NCBI GenBank assembly: GCA_048937405.1 | Contig: JBHLNF010000006.1 | Span: forward strand, 1 to 64,000 | Reading direction: 5' to 3' | DNA from: Promethearchaeota archaeon | GTDB lineage: Archaea > Asgardarchaeota > Lokiarchaeia > Sigyniarchaeales > SOKP01 | Length of the DNA: 64,000 bases | Shown here: one piece after another, positions 46,108-61,472 of the stretch | How positions within the stretch are numbered: the stretch's first letter is position 1 | How the letters are laid out: each line of letters begins with the position of its first letter | The notes under the pieces: generated by a model | The model's input: the letters and a program-made list of their open reading frames with translations, nothing else | Told to the model about the DNA's origin: nothing | The model's database searches: none | Program-made: the position numbers and the translations under genes

Positions 46108-48528
46108 ATGAATCAAATGGAATCAGACTATGATGGTGAGGCACCAGGATACCCTGGAAAAGAGCCCAGTTGGACATCAAGTACAAAAGATGGAGTAGGG
46201 ACATCAATATCACATGAAAGTTTAGTTTGGTTTACATTATCTAATGGTATAATTGATGAGGTATATTATCCTCGTATTGATCAAGCTGATATTCGCGACT
46301 TTCAATTTCTTATTTCTGATAATACTAATTTTTTCGAAGAAGAAAGAATTAACTGTGATCATAAGATTTCAACATTAAAGGAGGGAGTACCGGTATATAA
46401 GATCACAAATACCTCACATAAAAGAAGATATATGATAGAAAAAATAATTCTAACTGATCCTCGAAGGAATGTACTCTTGTTAAAAGTAAAGTTTACTCCC
46501 TTGAAAGGAAATTTAGATGAATATCATCTTTATACAATTTTAAATCCTCATATTAAAAACTTTGGTTATGGAAACAATAGCTGGGTGGGTAATTATAAAG
46601 GCGTTCCTATGCTTTTTGCTCAGAGAGAAAATATTGTACTAGCATTAGCATGTTCTACACCTTTTTTTAACATGAGCTGTGGGTATTATGGTATAAGTGA
46701 TGGTTGGCAAGATATAAATAAAAATCATATTTTAAAGCATCGATATTCTCACGCATCAAATGGAAATGTTGTAATAACGGGAGAAATTGATTTGAAAGTA
46801 AGTAGGGGAAATTTTATTATTGCAGTTGCATTTGGTAATAATCCGGCAGAAGCAGGACAACTTGCCCGTGCTACTTTGTATAACAATATTAATCAAATAA
46901 TTGAGGCTTACATGTCTTCTTGGTTAAAATTTCAGCAAAATTGTACAAACTTAGGTCATGTTGGAGAAAAAGGATTTAATATTTACCGGTTGAGTATTGT
47001 AGTTTTAAAGACTCATATGGATAAACGCTTTTCAGATGGCACAATAGCGAGTTTATCAATTCCTTGGGGATTTGCGAAAGGTGACGATGATTTAGGGGGT
47101 TATCACTTAGTATGGCCTAGGGATCTTGTTGAAACTGCAGGTGGGCTTCTTGCAGTGGGAGCTAATTTAGAAGCTTTACAAATTATGATTTATTTAATGA
47201 GTACTCAAAATAAAGATGGACACTGGCCTCAAAATATGTGGTTAGATGGCACCGAATATTGGCATGGAATACAAATGGATGAAACTGCTTTTCCAATATT
47301 ACTAGCAAATGCTTTAAAAGAAAAAGGGCTACTTAAAGAGATTAATATTTGGCCTACTATAAGGAAAGCCGTGAGTTATATAGCATGTAATGGTCCTGTC
47401 TCTCAAGAGGATCGATGGGAAGAAGATTCAGGTTATTCTCCCTTCACTTTAGCAGTAGAAATTGCTGCTTTACTCATTGCATCAGAATTTGCTAGAGAAG
47501 CAGGAGAATTGCAAATTGCGAAATATTTAACAGAATTAGCAGACAATTGGAATTCCAATATCGAAAAATGGACTTATGTTAAGAATTCACATCTCGCCAA
47601 AAGGCTAAATGTCGAAGGTTATTATGTTCGAATAAGTCCTCCTGATCTTCCGGATGTCACTTCTCCCAAGGATGGTTATGTTCCAATTAAAAATAGACCT
47701 CCTGGTGAAAGTAAAGCTCTTTTTGAATATATCGTTAGTCCCGATGCGTTAGCTTTAGTACGATTTGGATTACGTGCTGCTGATGATATAAGAATAGTCA
47801 ACACAGTGAAAGTTATTGATTCTATGTTAAAAACAATAACTTCTACTGGTCCTACATGGCATCGTTATAATAAGGATGGTTATGGAGAACATTCAAATGG
47901 AGATCCTTTCGATGGTACTGGAATTGGTAGGGGATGGCCACTTTTAGCAGGTGAACGTGCTCACTATGAATTAGCGAAAGGCGATATTGATACAGCAAGA
48001 AAGCTTTTAAAAGTGATAGAAGCGCAGGTTGGTTCGGGAGGACTTATTCCCGAACAAATTTGGGATGCAGATGATATTCCTCAAAAAAATCTGTATAATG
48101 GGCATCCCTCAGGTTCCGCCATGCCCTTGGTCTGGGCGCATTCTGAATATGTAAAATTAGTGCGATCATTAGAAGATAACAAAATTTTTGATATGCCACT
48201 TCAAACTAAACTAAGATATGTTGAAGAAAACCATCCATCGAATCTAAAAATCTGGAAATATAATCATAAATTTTCTCAAATGAGCTTAGGAAAGATTTTG
48301 AGAATTGAATTGAGAGCTGAAGCTAGTGTTCGATGGTCCAGTAATGATTGGAATACCTTTCAAGAGTCTAAAACAATTGATACAGGGTTAGGTATCTATT
48401 ATGTAGATTTACCGACAAAAGATATGGATAAACCAGTAAATTTGAGTTTTACCTTCCATTGGTTAAACCAAGATAAATGGGAAAATTCAAATTATGAAAT
48501 CGAATTGACTTCTAAGAGTCCTGATTAA
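46108..48528 (+). CDS. Glucan 1,4-alpha-glucosidase / glucoamylase (GH15 with glucodextranase-N domain)
   Basis: GGYHLVWPRD, QMDETA, DRWEE, RYNKDGYGE, GRGWPLLAGERAHYE, LIPEQIW, PLVWAHSEY. Confidence 0.93.
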   Translation: MNQMESDYDGEAPGYPGKEPSWTSSTKDGVGTSISHESLVWFTLSNGIIDEVYYPRIDQADIRDFQFLISDNTNFFEEERINCDHKISTLKEGVPVYKITNTSHKRRYMIEKIILTDPRRNVLLLKVKFTPLKGNLDEYHLYTILNPHIKNFGYGNNSWVGNYKGVPMLFAQRENIVLALACSTPFFNMSCGYYGISDGWQDINKNHILKHRYSHASNGNVVITGEIDLKVSRGNFIIAVAFGNNPAEAGQLARATLYNNINQIIEAYMSSWLKFQQNCTNLGHVGEKGFNIYRLSIVVLKTHMDKRFSDGTIASLSIPWGFAKGDDDLGGYHLVWPRDLVETAGGLLAVGANLEALQIMIYLMSTQNKDGHWPQNMWLDGTEYWHGIQMDETAFPILLANALKEKGLLKEINIWPTIRKAVSYIACNGPVSQEDRWEEDSGYSPFTLAVEIAALLIASEFAREAGELQIAKYLTELADNWNSNIEKWTYVKNSHLAKRLNVEGYYVRISPPDLPDVTSPKDGYVPIKNRPPGESKALFEYIVSPDALALVRFGLRAADDIRIVNTVKVIDSMLKTITSTGPTWHRYNKDGYGEHSNGDPFDGTGIGRGWPLLAGERAHYELAKGDIDTARKLLKVIEAQVGSGGLIPEQIWDADDIPQKNLYNGHPSGSAMPLVWAHSEYVKLVRSLEDNKIFDMPLQTKLRYVEENHPSNLKIWKYNHKFSQMSLGKILRIELRAEASVRWSSNDWNTFQESKTIDTGLGIYYVDLPTKDMDKPVNLSFTFHWLNQDKWENSNYEIELTSKSPD

Positions 48529-48751: not shown

Positions 48752-49258
48752 TTAATTGATTTTTTTATTATTACCTTCGTTATCATTGTTTTTGTTAATT
48801 TCAGGAATAATAATTGAATGATCTTCTTTAATCCGGTCTAAAACAATTTCTGTTTTAACTTCTTCAACTCCCGGTAAATTACGGAGTTTTTCTATTAGAC
48901 CCATCGAATCTTGATGATTCAGACATTTTGCCATAATGAATAAAGGATATTCACCTGTTACTACATACGCATATTTAACTTTATCCATGTTTTCAATCTC
49001 AGTTTTAACGTCTTCTAAGGGATATGATGCGTTTACTCTTAATGAAGCCATAACCATTTCTCGATACCCTAATTCTCTACAATCTATCAATGCAACGTAT
49101 TTTTTAATATAGTCTTTCTCAAGGCGTTGTAACCGGCTTCTTACAGCCGTTTGACTCTTGCCAACTACATAAGATATCTCTTTTATAGTAATTTTAGCAT
49201 CATTTTGGAGAAGTTCCAAGATTTGTCTATCAATATCATTTATATTTTCTATTGTCAT
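48752..49258 (-). CDS. Lrp/AsnC family transcriptional regulator
   Basis: DIDRQILELLQNDAK......S.TAV.SRL.RLE; VTGEY; divergent from the Hdr operon. Confidence 0.92.
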   Translation of the reverse strand: MTIENINDIDRQILELLQNDAKITIKEISYVVGKSQTAVRSRLQRLEKDYIKKYVALIDCRELGYREMVMASLRVNASYPLEDVKTEIENMDKVKYAYVVTGEYPLFIMAKCLNHQDSMGLIEKLRNLPGVEEVKTEIVLDRIKEDHSIIIPEINKNNDNEGNNKKIN

Positions 49259-49509: not shown

Positions 49510-49743
49510 GTGAAAAAAATGGCAGTTCATACATTTAATTATACTGGCTTAAAATGTCCAATGCCAGTTTTGAAAACCAAAAAGGAATTAAGAAAATTAG
49601 CTTCTGGAGATGTTCTAGAGGTAATTGCTGATGATGTCGGTGCTAAAAAGGATATACCGGCGTTAGTTAATAAATCCGGCGATGAATTAATAGAACTTAG
49701 AGAAGATAATGGAAATATTACATTTGTAATAAAAAAAGCATAA
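49510..49743 (+). CDS. tusA: TusA/SirA-family sulfur carrier
   Basis: GLKCPMPVLKT...GDVLEVIADD...DIP. Confidence 0.9.
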   Translation: MKKMAVHTFNYTGLKCPMPVLKTKKELRKLASGDVLEVIADDVGAKKDIPALVNKSGDELIELREDNGNITFVIKKA

Positions 49744-49772
49744 ACTTCAAAGATTAGAGGTTCTGGAAGACT

Positions 49773-50141
49773 ATGAAAACTTATACTTTCTTTGTAAGCA
49801 CTGAGCCTTATAAATTTGAAGCTGTAGATTCATTGATTGAAATAGCAAAAGCTGTGTTAAAAAAAGGTAATTCAATTCGAGGGATATTTTTCTTTGGAAC
49901 AGGCGTATATAATCTTAAAAGGGATATAAGCTGTGGTACTTCAATTAGAAATATTCCAAGTAAAATCCAACAATTTTGTAGAGAAAATAACATTCCTGTA
50001 GCTGGCTGTAGCACTTGGGTTAGTATTACAGGATTAAAAGAACCAGAATTTATTGAAGGAGCGACTGAAGAAGGTTTAGGTGACTTTTCAAATTGGGTTA
50101 TTGAATCAAATAAATTAATTGTATTTGGAGCTGGAGGTTAA
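49773..50141 (+). CDS. dsrE: DsrE/TusD-like sulfur relay protein
   Basis: PY, IFFFGTGVYN, conserved Cys in VAGCST, GLGDF; first gene of an E-F-H triad. Confidence 0.78.
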   Translation: MKTYTFFVSTEPYKFEAVDSLIEIAKAVLKKGNSIRGIFFFGTGVYNLKRDISCGTSIRNIPSKIQQFCRENNIPVAGCSTWVSITGLKEPEFIEGATEEGLGDFSNWVIESNKLIVFGAGG

Positions 50142-50146
50142 GAAAG

Positions 50147-50515
50147 ATGGTGGAATCAATTTTAATAATAAGTGATCAATCACCAGTTGGAAAGAATTTT
50201 GCTGCAGAAGCAATTAGGATTGGCTCTGGATTTGTAGCACTGGGAGAATATATAGACTGTAAAATTGTTTTTATGGGAGATGCTGTTTATTTATTCAATA
50301 AAAATGCTTCTCCTGAAACTGTGGGAATGGATTCAATTGATGAAATTCTTGAGATGGCAGAATTATCTGATTTAGAAGTGTATATAATTGAATCAGCTCT
50401 GAATAACGCAGGCTTGACAAAAGAGGATTTAGTAGAATATGAGAGTATGAAGATTATTACTATTGATGATCTAGTAGATCTAATAGAAAATGCGGATGTA
50501 TGTTTTAGATATTAG
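50147..50515 (+). CDS. dsrF: DsrF/TusC-like protein
   Basis: SPVG....EAIR, VFMGDAVY, ending ENADVCFRY. Confidence 0.78.
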   Translation: MVESILIISDQSPVGKNFAAEAIRIGSGFVALGEYIDCKIVFMGDAVYLFNKNASPETVGMDSIDEILEMAELSDLEVYIIESALNNAGLTKEDLVEYESMKIITIDDLVDLIENADVCFRY

Positions 50516-50530
50516 GAGGAGGAAAATAAT

Positions 50531-50872
50531 ATGACAGATAATCTTGATATAATTTATTTATTCGGATATAGTAGTAATACTGGAAGGCAATTAGAACGAT
50601 TATTTCCTATTATACATTTACAAAAAGTTAAAAATTCTAAAATTGGCTTAGTTTTAATTCATGATGGAGTAATTGGAATTACAACTAAAGGGAGTATTCC
50701 TAAAGAAATGGAAGACTTTCTTGATTTAAATATTGCTATGTTTGCAATGATTCCTGATTTGAAAGCACGTGGTATATCACTTGATTATATCAGTGAGAAA
50801 ATTAAACTCATCGAATATGACGATCTTATAGATATTTTGGATATAACACCAAAAATAGTATCTTGGATGTAA
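50531..50872 (+). CDS. dsrH: DsrH/TusB-like protein
   Basis: LIHDGV, DLKARGI, IEYDDLID....VSW. Confidence 0.8.
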   Translation: MTDNLDIIYLFGYSSNTGRQLERLFPIIHLQKVKNSKIGLVLIHDGVIGITTKGSIPKEMEDFLDLNIAMFAMIPDLKARGISLDYISEKIKLIEYDDLIDILDITPKIVSWM

Positions 50873-50969
50873 TGAAATTAAAAAAAAATATAAAAAAAAA
50901 TTTTTTGCAAAAATTCTGACTAATGTCAGTTTAATAATAGTTTTAAACAAATAAATAAAAAAAAAAAAG

Positions 50970-51401
50970 GTGGTATATATGGCTGAAAATGAAACAATAA
51001 ATTTTATTGTAAAGGATAAATCATTCGAAAAGTTTGCAATGATGATGATCCTTGGTACTACAGGTGATGCCATGGACACAAAAATGAATTTTTTCTTTAC
51101 TTTTTGGGGTTTAAATCTTTTAAAAAAGAAATTTAAACCAAAAGTTGCAGGGATGCCTACCCCTATGAAAGGGATGGCAGCGAAAATGTTTAGGAAGAGA
51201 ATGAAAAAATTTGGAATTGAAGATCCATGGGCAATGATTAAAGATGCAGTTGACAGCGGAAATATGAAATTATATCCATGTCAAATGACAATGGATTTAA
51301 TGGGGATTAAGAGAGAAGATTTATTTGATTGGGTTGAAGATCCTGTGGGTGCTGCCTCATTTTTAGAAATGAGTAATGGTGGAAGAATAGTTTCATTATA
51401 A
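50970..51401 (+). CDS. DsrE2-like (DrsE_2) sulfur carrier
   Basis: FFFTFWGLNLLKK, YPCQMTMDLMG, VGAASFL. Confidence 0.88.
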   Translation: MVYMAENETINFIVKDKSFEKFAMMMILGTTGDAMDTKMNFFFTFWGLNLLKKKFKPKVAGMPTPMKGMAAKMFRKRMKKFGIEDPWAMIKDAVDSGNMKLYPCQMTMDLMGIKREDLFDWVEDPVGAASFLEMSNGGRIVSL

Positions 51402-51447
51402 AATTAATTTTTTTTTTAATTTTTTATATAAAAAAAGGTGATGATAA

Positions 51448-52005
51448 ATGTCTGATGTAGAAGAACAGACAAGAGAATATAAAACAGACGAAGATTTTGA
51501 TCAAGATTTTTTTAAAAATATTGAAAGGAGGTCAAACATTTGGCAGTGCATCCAATGTGGTACATGCACAGCAAGTTGTGAAAGTGGAAGATGGACTGCT
51601 TTGAAGACTCGTTCAATTATTAGAAAAGTTGTATTAGGAGATTTATCGGTATTAAAAGATCCAGATATTTGGTTATGTACTACATGTTATCAATGTTATG
51701 AGCGATGTCCACGAGATGTAAGACCTACAGATGTAATTATGGAATTGAGAAATTATGCTACTAAATTAGGCAATATTTCTCCCAATCATAGAGCCGTTGT
51801 AGGATATTTGAAAAACTTTGGACATGCTGTACCGATAAATGATGAGGTAAGAAAACGAAGAATCGAATTAGGGTTAGAAGAATTACCCCCTACTGCGTTT
51901 AAATTTAAACAAGAGGGGGATGATAAAGATTTAAAAAATATTGAAGAACATATGTTTGATTTACCTCCAGTCAAGGAGGATAAAAAAGAAAAGGAGGAGA
52001 CATAA
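51448..52005 (+). CDS. hdrC: Heterodisulfide reductase subunit C
   Basis: CIQCGTCTASC, WLCTTCYQCYERCPR. Confidence 0.93.
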   Translation: MSDVEEQTREYKTDEDFDQDFFKNIERRSNIWQCIQCGTCTASCESGRWTALKTRSIIRKVVLGDLSVLKDPDIWLCTTCYQCYERCPRDVRPTDVIMELRNYATKLGNISPNHRAVVGYLKNFGHAVPINDEVRKRRIELGLEELPPTAFKFKQEGDDKDLKNIEEHMFDLPPVKEDKKEKEET

Positions 52006-52007
52006 AG

Positions 52008-52925
52008 ATGGTCAAAGAAAATACGTTTGCGTTCTTTTTAGGGTGTATAATGCCTAATCGATATCCTGCTATCGAGAAATCAACGAAATTTGTCATGGAA
52101 AAATTAGGATATGAACTCTTAGATATGGAAAGAGCAACTTGTTGTCCCGCTCCAGGCGTTTTCCGTTCTTTCAATAAAATTGATTGGATGGTAGTTGCTG
52201 CGCGAAATTTATGTATTGCAGAAAAATTAGATGCTGATATTTTAACAGTTTGTAATGGATGCTTTGGTACACTCCAAGAAGTAAATAAACATCTTAAACA
52301 AAACGAAGAACATCGTGAAATGGTCAATAAAAAACTTAAATTATTAGGGGACTATGAATTTAAAGGTACGATTAATGTACGTCATATAGCTGAAGTTTTA
52401 GGATATGAAATTGGACCATGGGGGATTGAAGATCATATAATAAGGAAAGTAAATATTAAGGCTGCTATTCATTATGGATGCCATTTCTTAAAGCCGACAA
52501 GAATTAGAGAAATTGAAAGTTCTGAAGGTCCTACGATAATTGAAGATTTTGTTGAAGTATTAGGTGTCGAATCTGTAAGATTTAATGAACAGCTTACTTG
52601 TTGCGGTGCAGGTGGTGGAGTAAAAGCTTATGATGGTAATTCAAGTATGACAATTTTTGGTGAAAAAATGAAGAATATTGATGAAGTTAAACCAGATATA
52701 ATATTAGATATCTGTCCATTTTGTCATTTACAATTTGAGACAGGACAAGATTATTTAAATAAAAATAAAGCTTGTAATTATGATTATCCTGTAATTCATA
52801 TCTCCCAGCTTGTTGCCTATTGTATGGGAATGGACCAAGAATTTATTGGTCTTCAATATCAGTTAATGGGACGAGAGTTTATTTTTGGGGGAGAACAATT
52901 AAATAAAGAAGAGGAGATTGCTTAA
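52008..52925 (+). CDS. hdrB: Heterodisulfide reductase subunit B
   Basis: FLGC, CCPAPG, TVCNGC, HYGCH, CCGAGGG, CPFCHLQF (two CCG domains). Confidence 0.95.
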   Translation: MVKENTFAFFLGCIMPNRYPAIEKSTKFVMEKLGYELLDMERATCCPAPGVFRSFNKIDWMVVAARNLCIAEKLDADILTVCNGCFGTLQEVNKHLKQNEEHREMVNKKLKLLGDYEFKGTINVRHIAEVLGYEIGPWGIEDHIIRKVNIKAAIHYGCHFLKPTRIREIESSEGPTIIEDFVEVLGVESVRFNEQLTCCGAGGGVKAYDGNSSMTIFGEKMKNIDEVKPDIILDICPFCHLQFETGQDYLNKNKACNYDYPVIHISQLVAYCMGMDQEFIGLQYQLMGREFIFGGEQLNKEEEIA

Positions 52926-54953
52926 ATGACAGTGAAAGAAGAAAAAGTAGTTGAAGTAAATAAATTAGGTGATAAAGATAAACAAGAAGAACCAAGAATA
53001 GGTGTTTTTGTATGTCATTGTGGTCATAATATCGCAGGAACAGTTGATGTTGCTAAAGTAGCAGAATATGCTAAAGATTTACCTAATGTAGTTAAAGCTG
53101 AACATTATATGTTTATGTGTTCAAAACCAGGAGTTCAAATGCTTAAAGATTCTATTGAAGAATTAGATGTTAATAGAACAGTGGTGGCTTCATGTTCAAA
53201 AAACCAACATGGAAGGACTTTTGCTAAAGCAATAGAGGAAATGGGGCTCAATAAACATCGACATCAACAAGTTAATATTAGAGAATTTAATAGTTGGGTG
53301 CATCAGAAAGAGAAAGATAAAGCAACCGAAAAAGCTAAGAAGTTAGTAGAAGCTGGAGTAAATAGAGCAAGAAAGCTAGAGGATGTCGAGACACGGAGAA
53401 TTCCCACGACTAAAGCTGCATTAGTGATTGGTGCTGGTATTGCAGGACTTCGTGCTTCATATGATTTAGCGGAGTTAGGAATTCCAGTTTATTTAGTAGA
53501 AAAATTATCTACAATTGGAGGACATATGACACAATTAAATAAAACATTCCCAACTTTGGAATGTCCACAATGTAGTATTTCTCCATTAACTAATGGTGTA
53601 GCTAATCATCCGTTAATAGAACTCTATACTAATGCTCAAATTAAGAGTGTGGAGGGTTCAATGGGTAATTTTGAAGTTGAGGTTGAAATAAAGCCAAGAT
53701 ATGTTAAAAATAATTGTACATCTTGCGGTGAGTGTGCCTTACATTGTCCTGTGGAAGTACCTAGTGAATGGGATAGTGGAATGTCAATGAGAAACGCAAT
53801 TTATAAAGCGTATCCACAAGCAATTCCAGCTACATATGTGAGAGACAAAAATAGTTGTATTGAATGTAATACATGTATTAATGTTTGTCCCGTACAAGCT
53901 ATAGATTTTTCAATGAAAGCAGAAATTAAAACATTTAAAGTTGGTTCTATTGTTGTTGCCGCTGGCTATGATGAATATGATCCTTCAGAAATTGAAGCGT
54001 ACCATTATAGTCAAGAAGGATATGAAGATGTGATAACACAACTCAAATTGGAAAGGATGTTAGCTCCGGGTTCTCTTACCAATAGTCAAGTATTACGTCC
54101 TTCTGATGGTAAAATCCCTAAAAGTATCGTGATGATACAATGTGTAGGAAGTAGAAATGATCAAGTAGGGAATCAATATTGTACAGGAGTTTGTTGCAAA
54201 TTTGCAATTAAAAATGCTCGAATTGTAAAAGAAATGTATCCAGATTCAGATATTACAATTTGCTATATTGATGTGAGGACTCCCGGTTTAAACTTTGAAG
54301 AATTATACAAATCAGCACAGGAAGTAGGAGTAAGATTTATTAGAGGACGTCCATCAGAGATTCTTAGAGACCCTGTTTCTGGAGAATTAAGAGTAATTGT
54401 TGAAGATACTTTAAGTCAAACTCCTTTAAAATTAAAAGCAGATATGGTGGTATTATCAGCAGCAATGGTACCTCCTGAAGGTATCGGTCCGTTAGGATCA
54501 AAATTACAAGTTCTACGCTCAAAAGAAGGATTTTTAAAAGAATTTCACATTAAAATGAATCCAACTTTAAGCAGTAAAGGAGGAATATTTATAGCGGGGG
54601 CAATTCAAGGTCCTAAAGATATTTCTGAATCAGTTGCTCAAGCGGGTAATGCTGCAGCTATAGCTGCTGCTCCATTGGTAAAGGGCTATATTGAAAAAGA
54701 GATGTTAATTCCTTCAGTAGATTTTGATTTATGTGTTAGATGTGGTCTATGTAAAACTGTATGCGCTCCAGCAGCGATACAAATTAATGATGATGGAACA
54801 CCTGTGGTAAATGAGGTTGCTTGTAAATCATGTGGTATGTGTATGCCTGTCTGTCCTACGGGAGCAATTCAATTATTAAATTTTAGTGATGAACAATTAT
54901 TAGATGAAATAATCGCAATTTCAGGAGGAGGTGTTATATGCGAAAATGAGTGA
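52926..54953 (+). CDS. hdrA: Heterodisulfide reductase subunit A
   Basis: IGVFVCHCG, VIGAGIAG, KTFPTLEC, QCVGSR, YCTGVCC, QGPKDI, plus ferredoxin motifs. Confidence 0.96.
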   Translation: MTVKEEKVVEVNKLGDKDKQEEPRIGVFVCHCGHNIAGTVDVAKVAEYAKDLPNVVKAEHYMFMCSKPGVQMLKDSIEELDVNRTVVASCSKNQHGRTFAKAIEEMGLNKHRHQQVNIREFNSWVHQKEKDKATEKAKKLVEAGVNRARKLEDVETRRIPTTKAALVIGAGIAGLRASYDLAELGIPVYLVEKLSTIGGHMTQLNKTFPTLECPQCSISPLTNGVANHPLIELYTNAQIKSVEGSMGNFEVEVEIKPRYVKNNCTSCGECALHCPVEVPSEWDSGMSMRNAIYKAYPQAIPATYVRDKNSCIECNTCINVCPVQAIDFSMKAEIKTFKVGSIVVAAGYDEYDPSEIEAYHYSQEGYEDVITQLKLERMLAPGSLTNSQVLRPSDGKIPKSIVMIQCVGSRNDQVGNQYCTGVCCKFAIKNARIVKEMYPDSDITICYIDVRTPGLNFEELYKSAQEVGVRFIRGRPSEILRDPVSGELRVIVEDTLSQTPLKLKADMVVLSAAMVPPEGIGPLGSKLQVLRSKEGFLKEFHIKMNPTLSSKGGIFIAGAIQGPKDISESVAQAGNAAAIAAAPLVKGYIEKEMLIPSVDFDLCVRCGLCKTVCAPAAIQINDDGTPVVNEVACKSCGMCMPVCPTGAIQLLNFSDEQLLDEIIAISGGGVICENE

Positions 54954-55398
54954 ATGTGAATATATTGAACCAGAAGTTCTTGAAAAGATGGAAAATATTG
55001 TAGTTTTTATGTGTAATGAATGCGGACAAGGTTCAGCAAACACAGCTGGAGTTGCCCGGATGGCATATAATCCTGCAATTCGAATTGTTCGAGTACAATG
55101 TACTGGTCAAGTCGGTCCTATTCAGATTATGGATGCCTTGAACAACGGGGCAGATGCTGTTGCCTGTGTTGGCTGTTGTTTGGGAGCATGTCATTTCTTT
55201 AATGGGAATATTTTATCAATGCATAGAATAAAATTAATGAAAAAGTTATTTAAAGAATTAGGTTATAGCGATCAGTTTGTTAATCAATATACTTCTCGAG
55301 CTGCTGAAGGAGAAACTGCAGTTGGAGATTTTGATGATATTGTAGAACGATTAGCAACTGCAATAAGAGAGGAGGAGACGTTCAAAGATGGATGTTAG
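54946..55398 (+). CDS. mvhD: MvhD-like [2Fe-2S] subunit
   Basis: FMCNEC, RIVRVQCTG, GADAV..GCCLGACHF..GN; ATG at 54946 overlaps the hdrA end. Confidence 0.88.
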   Translation: MSECEYIEPEVLEKMENIVVFMCNECGQGSANTAGVARMAYNPAIRIVRVQCTGQVGPIQIMDALNNGADAVACVGCCLGACHFFNGNILSMHRIKLMKKLFKELGYSDQFVNQYTSRAAEGETAVGDFDDIVERLATAIREEETFKDGC

Positions 55399-56629
55399 AG
55401 TATTTCAGTTTAATGGATGTAATAAATGCTTCAATGAGACGATTCTTTTAGAAGGAGAATCAATGTATGAGGTGGAGTTTATAAACAATCCGAAAGAATG
55501 GAAGGAGAAAAAAACAGATGTATCAATTATTACTGGATTTTTACTTCCTGAAAACAAGGATGCATTAAATAAAATTAAAAAAAATTCTGAAAAGGTGATT
55601 GCTTATGGAAATTGTGCTACTACAGGAGGGATTTTTGCTCTTGCAAATCAAAAAGGTCATGATGTATCTCCATTAAATAATATCATTGAAAATCCAATTA
55701 ATATTAATGGTTGTTTAGGGGAAATTGAAGAATTAAAATTAGAAATTGAAGATAATGATCTCCCAAAATTAAAAAATCTCTGTATTGTATGCGGAAGACG
55801 AAAAACTTGTGATTACTTAGATGATGTAAAACGACAAATTGAATTAGAAGATACTGAGACATGTTTTAATGACCAAGGATATCTTTGTAATGGTTTTATC
55901 TCCAAAGAATGTAAAGAACGATGTATTGACTATAATGCTCCCTGTAGAGGTTGCAAACCAATTGTTGAACGTTCTGGGGTCAGAATGTTAGGCATGTTTG
56001 GAACTCTTATGGGAAATATTGAAGTTGCGACTGAGCATTCTGAAAAGGGAGCAACTGATAAATTAGCAGACAAGGATGATGATGTGACTGCAGGTCTACC
56101 CGATATAGTAGGTAATTTCTTTAGATTTACTTTGCCAACATCAGGATTGCCAAAAGGTCGAATTCCTTCAAATGGAAACATATTAGAAGATGTTTTTATA
56201 GGAAGACTTATTGAAGAATTACCTCTAATTTCTGGATTATTAGGGGGGGATCATTCAATCTCATTAACATTAAAGATAATTGAAACCTATGAAGACGCTA
56301 ATAATATTGAAGTAAGTGAAAAAACAAAAAATTATCGAAATCAACTATTAAAGTTGGAAATTGAACTTCAAAAGGCAATTCAGAATAAAGATTCAGAAAA
56401 ATATAAGAAAATCACTGATGAAATTCGTAAGATTGCTGGAAATATGAATTTATCTAATCTGTCCTTTGGAGGATTTCGGTCACAAATTGATGATAATGAT
56501 AATTTTGAAGAATATCAAACCCACCCTTTTGAAGTGGTTGAAGGAACATATAAGAATGGTTCAGTTGAATTTACAATTGATCCAATTGGTATTGTAAAAA
56601 AAATTAAAATTAAAGAGGGAAATGCATGA
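55388..56629 (+). CDS. mvhG: MvhG-like hydrogenase small subunit fused to a degenerate large-subunit-like C-terminal region
   Basis: GCNKC, GNCATTGGI, NGC, LCIVC, CFNDQGYLCNG, C...PCRGC; about 150 extra C-terminal residues. Confidence 0.75.
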   Translation: MDVRVFQFNGCNKCFNETILLEGESMYEVEFINNPKEWKEKKTDVSIITGFLLPENKDALNKIKKNSEKVIAYGNCATTGGIFALANQKGHDVSPLNNIIENPININGCLGEIEELKLEIEDNDLPKLKNLCIVCGRRKTCDYLDDVKRQIELEDTETCFNDQGYLCNGFISKECKERCIDYNAPCRGCKPIVERSGVRMLGMFGTLMGNIEVATEHSEKGATDKLADKDDDVTAGLPDIVGNFFRFTLPTSGLPKGRIPSNGNILEDVFIGRLIEELPLISGLLGGDHSISLTLKIIETYEDANNIEVSEKTKNYRNQLLKLEIELQKAIQNKDSEKYKKITDEIRKIAGNMNLSNLSFGGFRSQIDDNDNFEEYQTHPFEVVEGTYKNGSVEFTIDPIGIVKKIKIKEGNA

Positions 56630-59094
56630 GTTTTGAATTATTAAGAGAAGAGATTGTAGATGCTGGTCTATGTCAAGGATGTGGTTTATGTGCTGGTTCA
56701 TGTAAACATATTGAAATGGATGTAAGACGTCCAACTTTAAAAGACTATTGTATATTGGAAAGAGGAGGCCAAGATTGTGGAAAGTGCTATCAAAATTGCC
56801 CTCAAATAATCCAGAAGAAATTTAAAGAAAAACAACCTCTTGCAATTTATTCACTAAGAAGCAAAGATCCAGAAATTATAGATAAAGCATCAAGTGGGGG
56901 TTTTGTTACTTCTTTTACTAAAGAATTGCTAGAAAATGACACGCTTAAAGAAGTTGTTATGGTCCAAGAAGAAGATGAGAAACCAGTTGCTGAGATAGTT
57001 TCTGATCCTAAAGAAGTTATTAAGAAAGCAGGTGTTATTTATGGTAGATCTGGTGTGCTACAAAAATTAGTAGAACTCACTGGTGAAACATTTGACCCAA
57101 TCGGTATTGTCGGTGTACCATGTGAAATACGTGGAGCTGCTGAACTTGAAGAAGAAATGAATCGAAATATTTTAAAAATTGGATTGTTTTGTAGTTCTCA
57201 AATGAGAACTAAGCAAACAGATAAAGGTTTAGTATGTTCTCCTTGTTGTAATGGATGCCCTTCTGGTGTTAATGCTCAAGGATACATTTCATTAATACGT
57301 CAAGGACAATATCAAGATGCCGTAGATTTGATTAGAGAAAGCAATCCACTTCCATCCATATGTGGGAGAATTTGTACTAATGAGTGTGAACATGGTTGTA
57401 CTTTAATAGGAGACGACCATCCTGTTGCAATCCGTGAGTTAAAGAAATTTGTTACTGAATGGGAAATTGAAAGAGCAAAGAATACATCAAAAACAACAGC
57501 TAAATTAAATAGAGATGCGAAAAAAGTAGCGATTATCGGATCTGGACCAGCTGGATTAACTGCAGCGTATTTTTTAAGAAGAATGGGATATGCACCCACT
57601 ATCTTTGAGAAGACAGATCAAACAGGTGGGATGCTAAGATTTGGTGTACCACAATTTAGGTTACCTAATTATGTACTAGATTATGATGTAGGCAGAATCA
57701 TAGATTCCGGTGTCGAAGTAAAACTTAACAAACCATTAGGTCCTGAGATGACTATTGAAGATTTGAAAAATGAAGGATTTGAGGCTATATTTATTGCCAC
57801 TGGACAATATAAACCTCGTACCTTACACTTAGAAGGTGAAGATTTACCAAATGTGCATGTAGCAATTCATTTTCTAATGGATAGAAAATATCGATACTGG
57901 GAAAATAAAGAAGAATTTAAAGGTAAAACTTTAGGCATAATTGGAGGAGGTGCTGTTGCAGTTGATGTTGCTCAAACGGCTCTTAGGTTAGGAGCTAAAA
58001 AGGTTCATCTTGTTGATATTATGTCAGAAGAACAACTCGAATTGGTCTTAAGAGACATTCCTGAAACTGAAATGGAGTTTATAAATTATCACTTCGCGAC
58101 TTCCACTTCCAAAATTACTCAGGATAAAGATGAAAAATTAGTTTTAAATTGTTATAATATTGAATGGGGTACTCCTGATAAGAATGGAAGAAGACCGTTA
58201 AATAAAATTGAAGGATCAGATTATGAAATTCTTGTTGATTCTATTGTAATAGCGGTTGGTCAAGCAGTAGATTTTGAGCAAATAGATGCAGCAACAAATA
58301 ATGAATTAGAAAAAGAACGAAATAGAATTAAAGTAAATGAAATAACATTTGAAACTAATATCCCTGGGGTTTTTGCTGGCGGAGATATTATCAGTAATTC
58401 TAAAGCTGTGGCTATTGCTGCTATAGCTCACGGAAAGGAAGCTGCATTTTCAATAGACAGATATCTAAAGGGAGAAAACTTGATAGATGGAAGATTTAGG
58501 CGAGAGAATTCTTTTTTCACGGGGCCTAAGAAACCCCCAAAAGATTATTCATTAAAACCAGAAACATTAGACCAAGCCACTGAAGAAAAAAGTTGGAGTT
58601 TTGAGGAGATTGATAAAATATTCAATGAGGATATGGCTTTACAAGAAGCGCGAAGATGTCTAAGTTGTAATCATTTCTGTACTCATTGTCAAGATTTCCC
58701 TGCAATATATTCAGACCTTACTGCGGGTGAAGTAGGATCAAAAGAGGGCTTTACTACAGTGGTAGTTTGGACGGAGCGTGGCAAAGCGCTTATTGAAAAA
58801 GCAATTAAAAAAGGTTTATTCGAGCAAGGAAAAGTTGATGAGAAAGAATTGAAAAATGCAATTAATCTAAAATCAAAACGTGAATTAATGAACTTTGAAA
58901 AACCCCCTAGACAACAGGTTTTAGATTATATATCACTGCAAGGTCCTAGCACTATTACAGACATTTCAAAACAAACAGGTCTTGAACCGAGGAAAGCCAG
59001 ATATGAAGCTCTCCGATTAGTTCAATTAATGGAATTAGAAATGAAGACTGAACCTGAAATGGAGGAACCAATATTTTCTATTATATGTGAATAA
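56626..59094 (+). CDS. Ferredoxin-FrhB-like protein with an inserted GltD/NfnB-type flavin Fe-S oxidoreductase module and a C-terminal winged HTH
   Basis: CQGCGLCAGSC; SSGGFVT, GVPCEI, IGLFC (FrhB); PCCNGCP, CGRIC, GSGPAG, GGGAVAVD, FAGGD, EARRCLSC (GltD); CTHCQDF..SDLTAG.VGS..G.TTVVVWTERG (FrhB C-terminus). Confidence 0.85.
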   Translation: MSFELLREEIVDAGLCQGCGLCAGSCKHIEMDVRRPTLKDYCILERGGQDCGKCYQNCPQIIQKKFKEKQPLAIYSLRSKDPEIIDKASSGGFVTSFTKELLENDTLKEVVMVQEEDEKPVAEIVSDPKEVIKKAGVIYGRSGVLQKLVELTGETFDPIGIVGVPCEIRGAAELEEEMNRNILKIGLFCSSQMRTKQTDKGLVCSPCCNGCPSGVNAQGYISLIRQGQYQDAVDLIRESNPLPSICGRICTNECEHGCTLIGDDHPVAIRELKKFVTEWEIERAKNTSKTTAKLNRDAKKVAIIGSGPAGLTAAYFLRRMGYAPTIFEKTDQTGGMLRFGVPQFRLPNYVLDYDVGRIIDSGVEVKLNKPLGPEMTIEDLKNEGFEAIFIATGQYKPRTLHLEGEDLPNVHVAIHFLMDRKYRYWENKEEFKGKTLGIIGGGAVAVDVAQTALRLGAKKVHLVDIMSEEQLELVLRDIPETEMEFINYHFATSTSKITQDKDEKLVLNCYNIEWGTPDKNGRRPLNKIEGSDYEILVDSIVIAVGQAVDFEQIDAATNNELEKERNRIKVNEITFETNIPGVFAGGDIISNSKAVAIAAIAHGKEAAFSIDRYLKGENLIDGRFRRENSFFTGPKKPPKDYSLKPETLDQATEEKSWSFEEIDKIFNEDMALQEARRCLSCNHFCTHCQDFPAIYSDLTAGEVGSKEGFTTVVVWTERGKALIEKAIKKGLFEQGKVDEKELKNAINLKSKRELMNFEKPPRQQVLDYISLQGPSTITDISKQTGLEPRKARYEALRLVQLMELEMKTEPEMEEPIFSIICE

Positions 59095-59128
59095 AATTAA
59101 AACTAATAAATATTAAGAGGTAAAGAAT

Positions 59129-59365
59129 ATGAATTATGATATGGAATTAAACGTCTGTGGGTCAGTATGTCCTGTTCCTGCTTTAAAAACTAAAAAACAA
59201 CTCATGAAAATGAGACCAGGTACAGTTTTAAAAGTTATTACCGATTACAAACCCGCAAGTGAATCTGTTCCACGAGATTTAGCAAAAACAAAACATAAAC
59301 ATTTAGGAACAGAATTCATTGATGATGATGAAATCTGGTATATGTATTTTGAAGCAGTAAAGTAA
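59129..59365 (+). CDS. tusA: Second TusA/SirA-family sulfur carrier
   Basis: LNVCGSVCPVPALKT...PGTVLKVITD....ESVP. Confidence 0.88.
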   Translation: MNYDMELNVCGSVCPVPALKTKKQLMKMRPGTVLKVITDYKPASESVPRDLAKTKHKHLGTEFIDDDEIWYMYFEAVK

Positions 59366-59480: not shown

Positions 59481-61472
59481 TTGTACTCACAAACTTATAA
59501 TCCAAATTTGATGAATATGTCTTATTCAGAATCTAAGGAGCTAGCTCAAGCAAGAAAATTTATTGATAAATGTAAGTTTGATGAAGCGGAACATTTGATT
59601 AAGAATTTCGAAGAAAAGGGAGGACAAATTCTTCATGATACAGTTTTATGTCAATACCTCAAGTGTGAGCTCTTATTTTGGAGAGGATTACATAAGGATG
59701 TTATAAAACTTGCCGAACAAGCATATAAAGAAAGTTTAGGATTAGAAAAAAACTTCCTATCGGTTAATATCTTACTAATAATGGCGTATTCTTTATTAAT
59801 GCTTAATAAATCGGAAGAATCTTACGAGATAGTTAAGCAAGGAGAGAAATTGCTAAAAGCTTTAACCCAAGAATTACCAATAGAATACAAACAAAGAGAA
59901 GCTTATATAGCTTTTCTTAAAGGATGGTATTACACACTAAAAAATGAGGAAGAGAGGGCTATAAAGCAGTTTGAGCTCAGCATATCATTGCGAGAAGAAA
60001 TTAGCGCTGATTTGGAAATTATCCATTCCCTTATTGGAATTGCCTATTTATTTACTTTTCTAAAGGGTGATTATAAACGTGCCTTAAAATATTTAGAGCG
60101 TGGTATAATTATTGCCGAGGAAAGTGGCAATAGATGGTGTATTGGATATCTTACTATGCGTATAGCAAGGATACATATGTTAAAGGGGGAATTGGATCAA
60201 AGTATTATACTTTATGATCGGAGCTTGACAATTTTCAATGATCTTGACAATAAATTTATGGTAGCTTGGATTCTTAGCCTTCTGGGGGATGTTAATAGAC
60301 AGAAAGGAGAATTAAATCGTGCATTGGAAAACATTGAACAAGGTTTGGCATTAGACCGCCAATTAGGATTATTACAAACACTAGCGATAGATCACTATAA
60401 TTTCATTCAGGTTTTAGTTGATATAGGTGATATAAAACGAGCACAGCAAGCTCTTCATGATTTAGAGCAATTGAACAATCAATCAAAAGACAAAATAGTT
60501 AATTTCTTGTATCTTCTTGATAAGGCTATAGTATTGAAAACTAGTCCTCGAGCTCGCAATCGGGTTGAAGCGGAAGAAATATTTAAGCAAGTTCTCGAAG
60601 ATGAGGATTCCAATTTTTTAATTAAGTTAAGAGCACTAACTAACTTATGTGAATTACTTTTAACTGAGTTACGGGTAACTAATGACTTAGAAGTGTTTGA
60701 TGAGTTAACTCAATGTATTACTCGATTATTAGCTATTGCCAAGAAATCACACTCATACTCAATACTGTGCGAGACTTACCTTTTTCAAGCTAAATTAGCA
60801 TTAATTTCATTGAACTTGAAAGAAGCTCGAAGATTATTAACTCAAGGACAGAAAATTACTGAAAAATATGGTCTTATTCTATTATCCCGGAAAATTTCAC
60901 ATGAACATGATGAATTACTTAAACAATTAGAAATATGGGAGAAATTAAAAGAATCAAAAGCACCCTTAGCTGAACGTATGGATTTGTCACGCTTAAATGA
61001 GCAAATGGAGCAAATGATACGAAAACGAGCGATAAACATTCCCGAACTTTCAGATGAAAAACCTGTGCTTCTTTTTATTATATCAGAGGGCGGAATACCA
61101 TTTTTCTCTCAAAAATTTATAAAGGATCAAACTTTTGAAGACTATCTTTTTGGAGGTTTCTTTACTGCAGTTAATACTTTTATTAGAGAACAGTTCTCTG
61201 AAGGGCTTGATCGGGCGATTTTTGGTGAACATACGCTCCTTATGAATTCTGTATCCCCCTTTTTGATATGTTACGTATATAAGGGTCAATCCTATTCTGC
61301 TCAACAAAGGATTAGAACTTTTATAGATAAAATACAGAATGATGAACTAGTATGGCAAACCTTTAAAAAATTTTACCAACTGAACCAAGAAATTCAATTA
61401 AAAGACATTCCCTCTTTAGAATCTCTAATAAAAGAGATATTTATTGATAAAAATATTCAATTAATAAGTTAA
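59481..61472 (+). CDS. TPR-repeat protein with a C-terminal longin/roadblock-like domain
   Basis: Multiple TPR units; C-terminal PVLLFIISEGGIPFFS..LFGGFFTAVNTF..GLDRAIFG..CYVYKGQSY. Confidence 0.85.
   Translation: MYSQTYNPNLMNMSYSESKELAQARKFIDKCKFDEAEHLIKNFEEKGGQILHDTVLCQYLKCELLFWRGLHKDVIKLAEQAYKESLGLEKNFLSVNILLIMAYSLLMLNKSEESYEIVKQGEKLLKALTQELPIEYKQREAYIAFLKGWYYTLKNEEERAIKQFELSISLREEISADLEIIHSLIGIAYLFTFLKGDYKRALKYLERGIIIAEESGNRWCIGYLTMRIARIHMLKGELDQSIILYDRSLTIFNDLDNKFMVAWILSLLGDVNRQKGELNRALENIEQGLALDRQLGLLQTLAIDHYNFIQVLVDIGDIKRAQQALHDLEQLNNQSKDKIVNFLYLLDKAIVLKTSPRARNRVEAEEIFKQVLEDEDSNFLIKLRALTNLCELLLTELRVTNDLEVFDELTQCITRLLAIAKKSHSYSILCETYLFQAKLALISLNLKEARRLLTQGQKITEKYGLILLSRKISHEHDELLKQLEIWEKLKESKAPLAERMDLSRLNEQMEQMIRKRAINIPELSDEKPVLLFIISEGGIPFFSQKFIKDQTFEDYLFGGFFTAVNTFIREQFSEGLDRAIFGEHTLLMNSVSPFLICYVYKGQSYSAQQRIRTFIDKIQNDELVWQTFKKFYQLNQEIQLKDIPSLESLIKEIFIDKNIQLIS

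Follow-up and report, generated by a model that had tools for sequence, protein, structure and literature searches.

Modular heterodisulfide reductase (Hdr) complexes and TusA/DsrE sulfur relays are both known kinds of systems, and the two are joined in a gene cluster found at positions 49510-59365 of the window, by which the whole 64,000-nucleotide stretch analysed here is meant. Contig C19 of a Promethearchaeota archaeon (assembly GCA_048937405.1), an Asgard archaeon of the class Lokiarchaeia, begins with the window; the genome comprises 4.47 Mb in 29 contigs and is 100% complete by marker genes. Its order is also that of Promethearchaeum syntrophicum MK-D1 and Ca. Lokiarchaeum ossiferum. 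The cluster contains twelve genes in the order tusA1-dsrE-dsrF-dsrH-dsrE2 (DsrE2B type)-hdrC-hdrB-hdrA-mvhD-MvhG-like gene-frhB (with a nested GltD module)-tusA2. It does not constitute a new category of system, and its main value lies in its testability in cultured strains.

Among the described Hdr complexes, MvhADG-HdrABC of methanogens (5ODC and related structures) contains close homologues of HdrA, HdrB, HdrC and MvhD of the cluster with the same Fe-S and CCG motifs, and the fold of its MvhG is found in the N-terminal half of the MvhG-like protein. However, the Asgard cluster lacks the catalytic MvhA, an FrhB or FrhB::GltD flavoprotein replaces the H2 site, the host, being without McrA, does not form methane, and sulfur carriers are attached. 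In FdhAB-MvhD-HdrABC (7BKB) and in the F420H2-dependent HdrA2B2C2 of Methanosarcina, an FrhB-family flavoprotein likewise feeds Hdr via MvhD, whereas the Asgard cluster has no FdhA, would use an MvhG remnant as a wire and carries GltD inside FrhB. A further system is FlxABCD-HdrABC of sulfate reducers and syntrophs, reportedly described by Ramos et al. in 2015 as NADH-linked, with an MvhD-like connector and a proposed bifurcation of electrons to ferredoxin and DsrC. Unlike FlxABCD-HdrABC, the Asgard input (MvhG remnant plus FrhB::GltD) is unrelated to FlxABC, and DsrC is absent from the entire phylum. Flox-type clusters are listed separately in the cultured strain MK-D1, and FlxABCD-HdrABC has been cited for Asgards (PMC7015854).

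Linkage of Hdr-like genes to TusA/DsrE carriers is shared with the sHdr systems (TusA, DsrE3, DsrE2 and LbpA), and DsrE2 of the cluster is of the DsrE2B type, as found beside Sulfolobales sHdr (PMC11094781). Unlike sHdr, the cluster contains a long bifurcating-type HdrA (about 340 aa in sHdr), a single hdrCBA set and MvhD with an input module. As to LbpA, no gene of the GCV_H family is present in the window, and the two found in the genome are located on contig C7, one in a gcvTHP operon and one alone. The TusA-DsrEFH-DsrC and TusA-TusBCD-TusE relays exhibit the same tusA-E-F-H gene order, and the active cysteine of the E subunit is kept in the cluster. In contrast to these relays, the Asgard DsrH lacks cysteine, the equivalog scores lie below cut-off and the DsrC/TusE acceptor is missing. 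Reduction of TusA- or DsrE-bound persulfides by a cytosolic Asgard Hdr has been put forward in a preprint on Nerearchaeum marumarumayae (bioRxiv 10.1101/2025.07.22.663070), where H2 is the donor, via a group 3c hydrogenase, and the reduction serves sulfur assimilation; in the consulted text of this preprint, the conserved cluster, a dead hydrogenase remnant and an FrhB::GltD input are not described. In the searchable body of literature, no paper was found that treats the cluster as a unit.

Hdr core, hydrogenase remnant and input module

All twelve genes are located on the + strand with an intergenic spacing of -23 to +97 nt, as obtained from the listing of open reading frames with Pfam and NCBIfam scans of the window, and each gene announced in the original prediction was found in the co-orientation and order given there. 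In the part between hdrC and frhB, neighbouring genes touch or overlap, with gaps of +2, 0, -23, -11 and -4 nt, the last two being the overlaps of the MvhG-like gene with mvhD and with frhB. HdrC (51448..52005) has two [4Fe-4S] sites and scores 176.3 bits with TIGR03290 (cut-off 160), and HdrB (52008..52925) scores 368.5 bits with TIGR03288 (cut-off 345.15). In HdrB, PF02754 is matched twice, and the ten cysteines of both CCG motifs, i.e. the non-cubane cluster site, are all present; the CCPAPG, HYGCH and CPFCHLQF motifs that had been predicted were each located, in HdrB. Alignment to solved methanogen HdrB proteins yields 303-308 bits with E about 1e-90 (5odc_B: 306.6 bits, E 2e-90). HdrA (52926..54953) is a 675-aa protein of the full-length bifurcating type with FAD and two ferredoxin-like domains (Fer4 at 262-326 and 598-650), whose residues 21-662 align with residues 2-646 of 5odc_A at 642 bits, whereas sHdrA 6tjr covers residues 340-584 only, at 135 bits. 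Thus, the assignment of this Hdr to the methanogen type, unlike sHdr, is upheld by the scores of all three subunits. MvhD (54931..55398; PF02662, 110.6 bits) is the [2Fe-2S] connector with a cysteine pattern kept in 65/65 orthologues, and HdrA2 is the best NCBIfam model for HdrA as well as for MvhD, for HdrA below cut-off. Judged from these sequences, the products of the hdr genes are predicted to be soluble and of the HdrABC-MvhD type, and would assemble into one complex that works without a hydrogenase.

Hdr genes are numerous in this genome, with about 20 for HdrA-like proteins, 16 for MvhD and at least eight for HdrB paralogues. HdrB of the cluster shares 43% and 39% identity with its nearest paralogues and 33% with the HdrB encoded beside a genuine MvhA. 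In the homologue search with HdrB, only Asgard orthologues were observed among the best 120 matches listed, and in a library of representatives at 50% identity, one representative is 88% identical and the others are at most 44% identical among the full-length matches. On contig C26, the gene at 144388-145806 (L137:6389-7807) encodes 472 aa, in which a long additional portion accompanies a [NiFe] small-subunit domain; this gene is divergent from the hdrCBA-mvhD operon that is the closest paralogue, and its product is possibly a further remnant of a hydrogenase. A second hdrCBA-mvhD set of MK-D1 (L055:2-2084, L116), whose HdrB is 42% identical, is divergent from tusA1, and hence the sulfur-carrier genes of this strain are flanked by two Hdr operons; in the genome of the window that paralogue is located on contig C26.

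The MvhG-like protein (55388..56629, 413 aa) comprises a small-subunit domain, from residue 1 to about 200, and a large-subunit remnant, at about 260-413, with PF01058 matching at 24-109 only. Its AlphaFold2 model is confident at residues 1-125 and 259-410. In an exhaustive structural search with this model, residues 1-123 matched MvhG 5odc_E (Z 12.2, rmsd 2.2 A, 120 residues aligned) and residues 260-413 matched FrhA 6qgt_A (Z 12.4, rmsd 3.4 A, 153 residues aligned), with the [NiFeSe] large subunit 4kl8_L (Z 11.8), HycE and NuoD-type proteins as the other matches of the C-terminal part. Orthologues align over the full length with the CxxC, GxCxxxGG and later small-subunit cysteine motifs being invariant, and no cysteine is conserved beyond C189. 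Because of the fold matches of both halves and the lack of conserved cysteine after C189, the modelled protein is identified as a fusion of a [NiFe] small subunit with a reduced, cysteine-free large subunit without metal ligands. Within the window no match to the [NiFe] large subunit (PF00374) is present, in line with the earlier claim that a catalytic subunit is absent there; the only two in the genome are located outside of it, at 140 kb of C19 and 121 kb of C26. The cluster would record an evolutionary step from a [NiFe] hydrogenase to an electron wire, in which the large subunit became a cysteine-free stub and the H2 site gave way to a flavoprotein, a reduction to which the history of Complex I is comparable.

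The FrhB-family flavoprotein (56626..59094, 822 aa) contains a GltD/NfnB-type insert at about 195-680 and is composed of FrhB_N (75-145), Fer4_20 (189-283), Pyr_redox_2 (299-603) and FrhB_C (667-739). The insert sits between the FrhB motifs KIGLFC and C..HC.DF, its best solved relatives are NfnB/GltD-type proteins, and the module also matches YgfK and a 'near Sec' model, in both cases far below cut-offs. In Thorarchaeota, FrhB is plain, with 345-385 aa and without the GltD insert. One Lokiarchaeal genome (G259; L048:7859-8998) also encodes an FrhB of 380 aa without the insert, in which short leftover linker motifs at the junction suggest that the NAD(P)H module was lost secondarily and recently within Lokiarchaeia, by deletion. 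The C-terminal tail of FrhB (about 761-819) is kept in all forms, and its order of secondary structure elements in the AlphaFold2 model, H-H-H-E-E, gives it a winged-helix-like appearance. The second Rossmann motif of GltD, KVHLVD, ends with an acidic residue (Asp), which is typical of NADH binding and is tentatively read in this way. The genome also encodes CofH, above cut-off, and two CofE proteins, and because of these genes of F420 biosynthesis, F420 is available in the host. Thus, the earlier claim that electrons do not come from H2 finds backing in an input module consisting of the FrhB/GltD flavoprotein and in the capacity of the genome to make F420, with F420H2 and/or NADH as the likely donor judging from the motifs and genes. 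The architecture and the non-H2 input as described here are considered probable.

Sulfur carriers and their linkage to Hdr

Five carrier genes precede hdrC. These encode TusA1 (49510..49743; CPMP motif; PF01206, 87 bits), a DsrE/TusD-like subunit (49773..50141; PF02635; TIGR03012 below cut-off), a DsrF/TusC-like subunit (50147..50515; PF02635; TIGR03010 below cut-off), a DsrH/TusB-like subunit without cysteine (50531..50872; PF04077; TIGR03011 below cut-off) and a DsrE2B-type soluble sulfur carrier (50970..51401; PF13686, 87.6 bits), while tusA2 (59129..59365; CPVP motif; PF01206, 65.8 bits) closes the cluster. The best solved relative of the DsrE2B-type protein is 2qs7, i.e. DsrE2B of Saccharolobus solfataricus (PMC11094781). 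Equivalog scores of DsrEFH with NCBIfam models are far below cut-off, for example 45 versus 89 bits, and TusA1 and TusA2 also match YedF models, far below cut-offs. Selenium handling, to which the YedF matches and those of the GltD module would point, was considered and set aside at these scores. Among distinct orthologues, Cys16 of TusA1 is kept in 40/40, Cys79 of DsrE (the equivalent of DsrE/TusD Cys78) in 43/43, Cys104 of DsrE2 in 46/46 and Cys14 of TusA2 in 58/58. TusA2 is strikingly conserved, with 61-92% identity across orthologues of Lokiarchaeia and Thorarchaeota. Prediction of a complex of HdrB, HdrC and TusA2 yielded a score of 0.00, below the mark, which is evidence neither for nor against binding.

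To our knowledge, DsrC/TusE is the only known acceptor of DsrEFH/TusBCD. Since DsrC/TusE (PF04358) is absent from all 399 Asgard genomes, including that of the window, with a positive control in E. coli, the DsrEFH proteins of the cluster must serve another partner. No sulfite reductase (NIR_SIR) is found in the whole genome either, and hence the absence of dsrAB and dsrC, initially noted for the window, extends to the whole genome. A separate TusA is encoded beside NifS and NifU on contig C7, and thus biosynthetic sulfur traffic has its own carrier; a further TusA-DsrE pair is present on contig C28.

The C7 genes are part of a second sulfur island (C7:445414-452079; L132:415-7080), which encodes a 794-aa protein with the domain order CoA-disulfide-reductase-rhodanese-TusA-rhodanese, OsmC, a CCG/Fer4 protein, NifU, NifS and TusA, and in which the 794-aa flavoprotein might itself reduce persulfide or polysulfide with NAD(P)H. 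The genome also contains another dsrEFH set, with 38-50% identity to that of the window, beside two AMP-binding enzymes at C10:73722-74829 (L134:4722-5829); in two other genomes (L052/L102 and L078), this second set is found on the opposite strand and immediately follows tusA2.

A full-length MvhG-like protein is present in 78 of the 399 Asgard species genomes, and a pattern search among 185,579 species genomes retrieved it from Promethearchaeota only. The carriers of this protein comprise 63 genomes of the window's own family, six of the 14 in the family of MK-D1 and Lokiarchaeum ossiferum, Sigynarchaeum, one genome of family f16 and seven of a distant family including Thorarchaeota, and thus both cultured strains, MK-D1 and L. 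ossiferum, are among the hosts. Gene order was surveyed in 20 neighbourhoods and 65 further loci. In all of the 36 loci of the Loki class that reach far enough upstream, tusA-dsrE-dsrF-dsrH-dsrE2 precede hdrCBA, and tusA2 is present in every locus of this class that continues past frhB. In Thorarchaeota the order is hdrCBA-mvhD-MvhG-like gene-frhB-tusA, followed by dsrEFH or by a second tusA; in one locus of the Thorarchaeota type (L129), no carrier is found in about 7 kb downstream, with the upstream side being cut off. The association of carriers with this hdr is beyond chance, the same set of genes being together in the Loki class and rearranged in Thorarchaeota, and the objection anticipated in the original prediction, that the carrier genes might not be conserved next to hdr in relatives, fails on this synteny. 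In two loci of Thorarchaeota (L059:5776-6549 and L060:6578-7351), the interval between two tusA genes contains a gene for a conserved 131-aa membrane protein and one for a 120-aa protein that is DsrE-like by eye.

Within the window's own genus, the cluster is found in 32 of the 53 genomes. In five near-complete members of the genus, both the MvhG-like protein and this HdrB are missing, with the best HdrB match being 41% identical. The cluster is therefore accessory, and its patchy occurrence fits a niche function better than a housekeeping one. In MK-D1, the orthologues correspond to DSAG12_01139-01151, all thirteen of which are transcribed at 182-348 reads per kilobase per million (RPKM), about typical for that genome, and the supplement annotates the Hdr genes (PMC7015854, Supplementary Table 3).

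Proposed mechanism and competing explanations

In the proposed mechanism, electrons would enter at the FrhB flavoprotein with F420H2 and/or NADH as donors (GltD module in Lokiarchaeia) and would pass via the Fe-S clusters of the MvhG-like protein, a group 3c hydrogenase remnant, and then via MvhD to reach the flavin of HdrA. HdrA would split them between ferredoxin and HdrC/HdrB, and the non-cubane clusters of HdrB would reduce a sulfur-sulfur bond brought by TusA1, DsrEFH, DsrE2B and TusA2, with H2S as the product. As substrate, either a persulfide or polysulfide attached to a carrier or a disulfide or trisulfide linking two carriers is proposed, and a carrier-bound polysulfide chain threading the tunnel of HdrB is a matter of speculation. 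Because the link between carriers and hdr is conserved, carrier-borne sulfur is the best available candidate substrate of this Hdr. Physiologically, the system might act as a sink for NADH/F420H2 and as a source of reduced ferredoxin in an amino-acid-fermenting syntroph. As a whole, this mechanism, in which NADH/F420H2 is the donor for the reduction of relay-borne sulfane sulfur by HdrB, is regarded as plausible, with a chance just short of even. A somewhat more tentative designation is that of an Asgard-specific bifurcating NADH/F420H2:ferredoxin and carrier-persulfide/polysulfide oxidoreductase, built on a dead group 3c hydrogenase scaffold. From the original interpretation, the methanogen-type Hdr, the loss of the catalytic hydrogenase subunit, the FrhB/GltD input and the conserved carriers have held, while a protein-bound persulfide as substrate, the donor, the direction of the reaction, bifurcation and assembly into a single complex are carried forward as proposals.

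If the mechanism is true, TusA, DsrEFH and DsrE2B take the role that is played by CoM-S-S-CoB in methanogens or by DsrC in sulfate reducers, a substrate is identified for one or more of the numerous Hdr complexes in non-methanogenic Asgard archaea, and a sulfur-based electron sink is added to Asgard syntrophic metabolism. The substrates of Hdr in non-methanogenic Asgards matter for models of syntrophy and of the origin of eukaryotes, and it is only in this cluster that the genes next to an Hdr module hint at one. Its presence in the cultured MK-D1 and L. ossiferum makes the hypothesis directly testable.

Several points weigh against this mechanism. It is built on genes and their comparison rather than on biochemistry or physiology. 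No YeeE-type sulfur importer was found in the genome, and it lacks explanation how a cysteine on the folded loop of TusA or DsrE could gain access to the buried site of HdrB. With a potential near -270 mV, the sulfane sulfur/H2S couple is far less oxidising than CoM-S-S-CoB at about -140 mV, which leaves little driving force for the reduction of ferredoxin from NADH/F420H2. The twelve genes may also form two or three transcription units, since the 46-nt gap between dsrE2 and hdrC, which together with the 97-nt gap between dsrH and dsrE2 is the widest in the cluster, contains a T10 run with a TATA-like box behind it, and in MK-D1 and L. ossiferum the Lrp gene occupies the spot between dsrE2 and hdrC. 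Further, the HdrB in the window is by far the most methanogen-like among the HdrB paralogues of the genome. In HdrB of M. thermolithotrophicus, an enzyme with narrow substrate constraints, contacts to CoM and CoB are made by the backbone NH of G46 and G198 and by R201, R14, R240 and F233 (2026 study, PMC13261682). The equivalents in the window are R18 for R14, G50 for G46, G203 for G198, K206 for R201, F238 for F233 and T245 for R240, and this pattern holds in all Asgard orthologues with Lys or Arg at the position of R201, so that the predicted pocket is essentially that of a CoM-S-S-CoB reductase. Arg240 was considered as a marker of lost CoB binding and was rejected, as this residue is Thr, Ser or Gly in Asgard orthologues but Val in the bona fide HdrB of M. 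marburgensis. Finally, ComD (203.9 bits, cut-off 148) and ComE (246.9 bits, cut-off 221.5) are encoded in the same genome and leave a sulfonate thiol possible in this lineage. Both genes are located at C18:19544-20598 (L145:7545-8599), next to a TnpB gene.

These features of HdrB lead to an alternative in which the same complex reduces a low-molecular-weight heterodisulfide resembling CoM-S-S-CoB and the carriers fulfil another task, such as sulfur insertion into a thiol cofactor or the upkeep of unusual Fe-S clusters. Conservation of the CoM/CoB-contacting residues and of the lipophilic tunnel residue F233 agrees with it, as does a score of 306-308 bits with methanogen HdrB versus an identity of at most 43% to the paralogues of the same genome, and so does the occurrence of ComE above cut-off in 88 of the 399 Asgard genomes, including 49 of the 53 in this genus. 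However, neither McrA nor ComA was found in the genome, and across the phylum the occurrence of ComE is uncoupled from that of the cluster: 39 genomes contain both, the other 39 of the 78 cluster-bearing genomes, including the closed MK-D1, L. ossiferum and Harpocratesius, lack ComE, and 49 contain ComE only. Because of this uncoupling, a CoM-type thiol cannot be the general substrate, and it is kept as a lineage-specific possibility. A small heterodisulfide also gives no account of why five carrier genes stay with this Hdr in two Asgard classes, and we consider this alternative unlikely, at about one chance in five. Continued dependence on H2, with a genuine MvhA from elsewhere docking onto the MvhG-like protein, is very improbable. 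The genome does encode two [NiFe] large subunits, at C19:140273-141577 (L1 and L2 motifs, RICGLC and DPCISCATH) and at C26:120331-121638 (L1 motif, RICGIC), and a trans-encoded MvhA completing the complex had been named beforehand as a finding that would speak against the original prediction. Such genes thus exist, but each has its own MvhG adjacent with MvhD and Hdr genes nearby. In addition, a large-subunit remnant is already fused to the MvhG-like protein, the translation of FrhB is coupled to that of this protein, and MK-D1 is reported to have one hydrogenase only, at another locus (PMC7015854).

The carriers themselves admit two other explanations. TusA and DsrEFH/TusBCD are classic biosynthetic relays and the genome is without sulfite reductase, and hence the Hdr might power an assimilatory route in which thiosulfate, polysulfide or S0 yields the sulfide or persulfide used for Fe-S clusters, tRNA thiolation and cofactors, close to the Nerearchaeum proposal of an Hdr acting on TusA- or DsrE-bound persulfides (10.1101/2025.07.22.663070). 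Such a role is improbable in view of the patchy occurrence within the genus with absence from near-complete relatives, the separate NifS-NifU-TusA set, the lack of TusE and MnmA-type acceptors, and the cost of a large bifurcating complex for obtaining sulfide in sulfidic sediments. The reverse direction, in which sulfane sulfur or thiols on the carriers are oxidised at HdrB and the electrons, along with those of reduced ferredoxin, are confurcated onto F420 or NAD+, draws on the reversibility in principle of Hdr-type reactions and on the presence of TusA/DsrE carriers beside Hdr-like genes, which is otherwise a hallmark of sulfur-oxidising sHdr (PMC11094781). In this cluster, however, the C1B1AHC2B2 layout, the short HdrA and LbpA, i.e. 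the hallmarks of sHdr, are missing, no Dsr, Sox or sulfite-oxidising follow-up is found in the genome, and the hosts are strict fermenting anaerobes (PMC7015854), which renders oxidation quite improbable, at roughly one chance in ten.

Genes flanking the cluster

A regulator of the Lrp/AsnC family (PF13404 and PF01037) is encoded on the - strand at 48752..49258, 251 nt upstream of the cluster, and hence is divergent from it as had been predicted; it is located upstream in most loci of the Loki class. Just upstream of the Lrp gene, an 806-aa glycoside hydrolase of the GH15 glucodextranase type is encoded at 46108-48528 of the window. On the other side, tusA2 is followed at 59481-61472 by the gene for a 663-aa TPR protein, which is found downstream in several relatives too.

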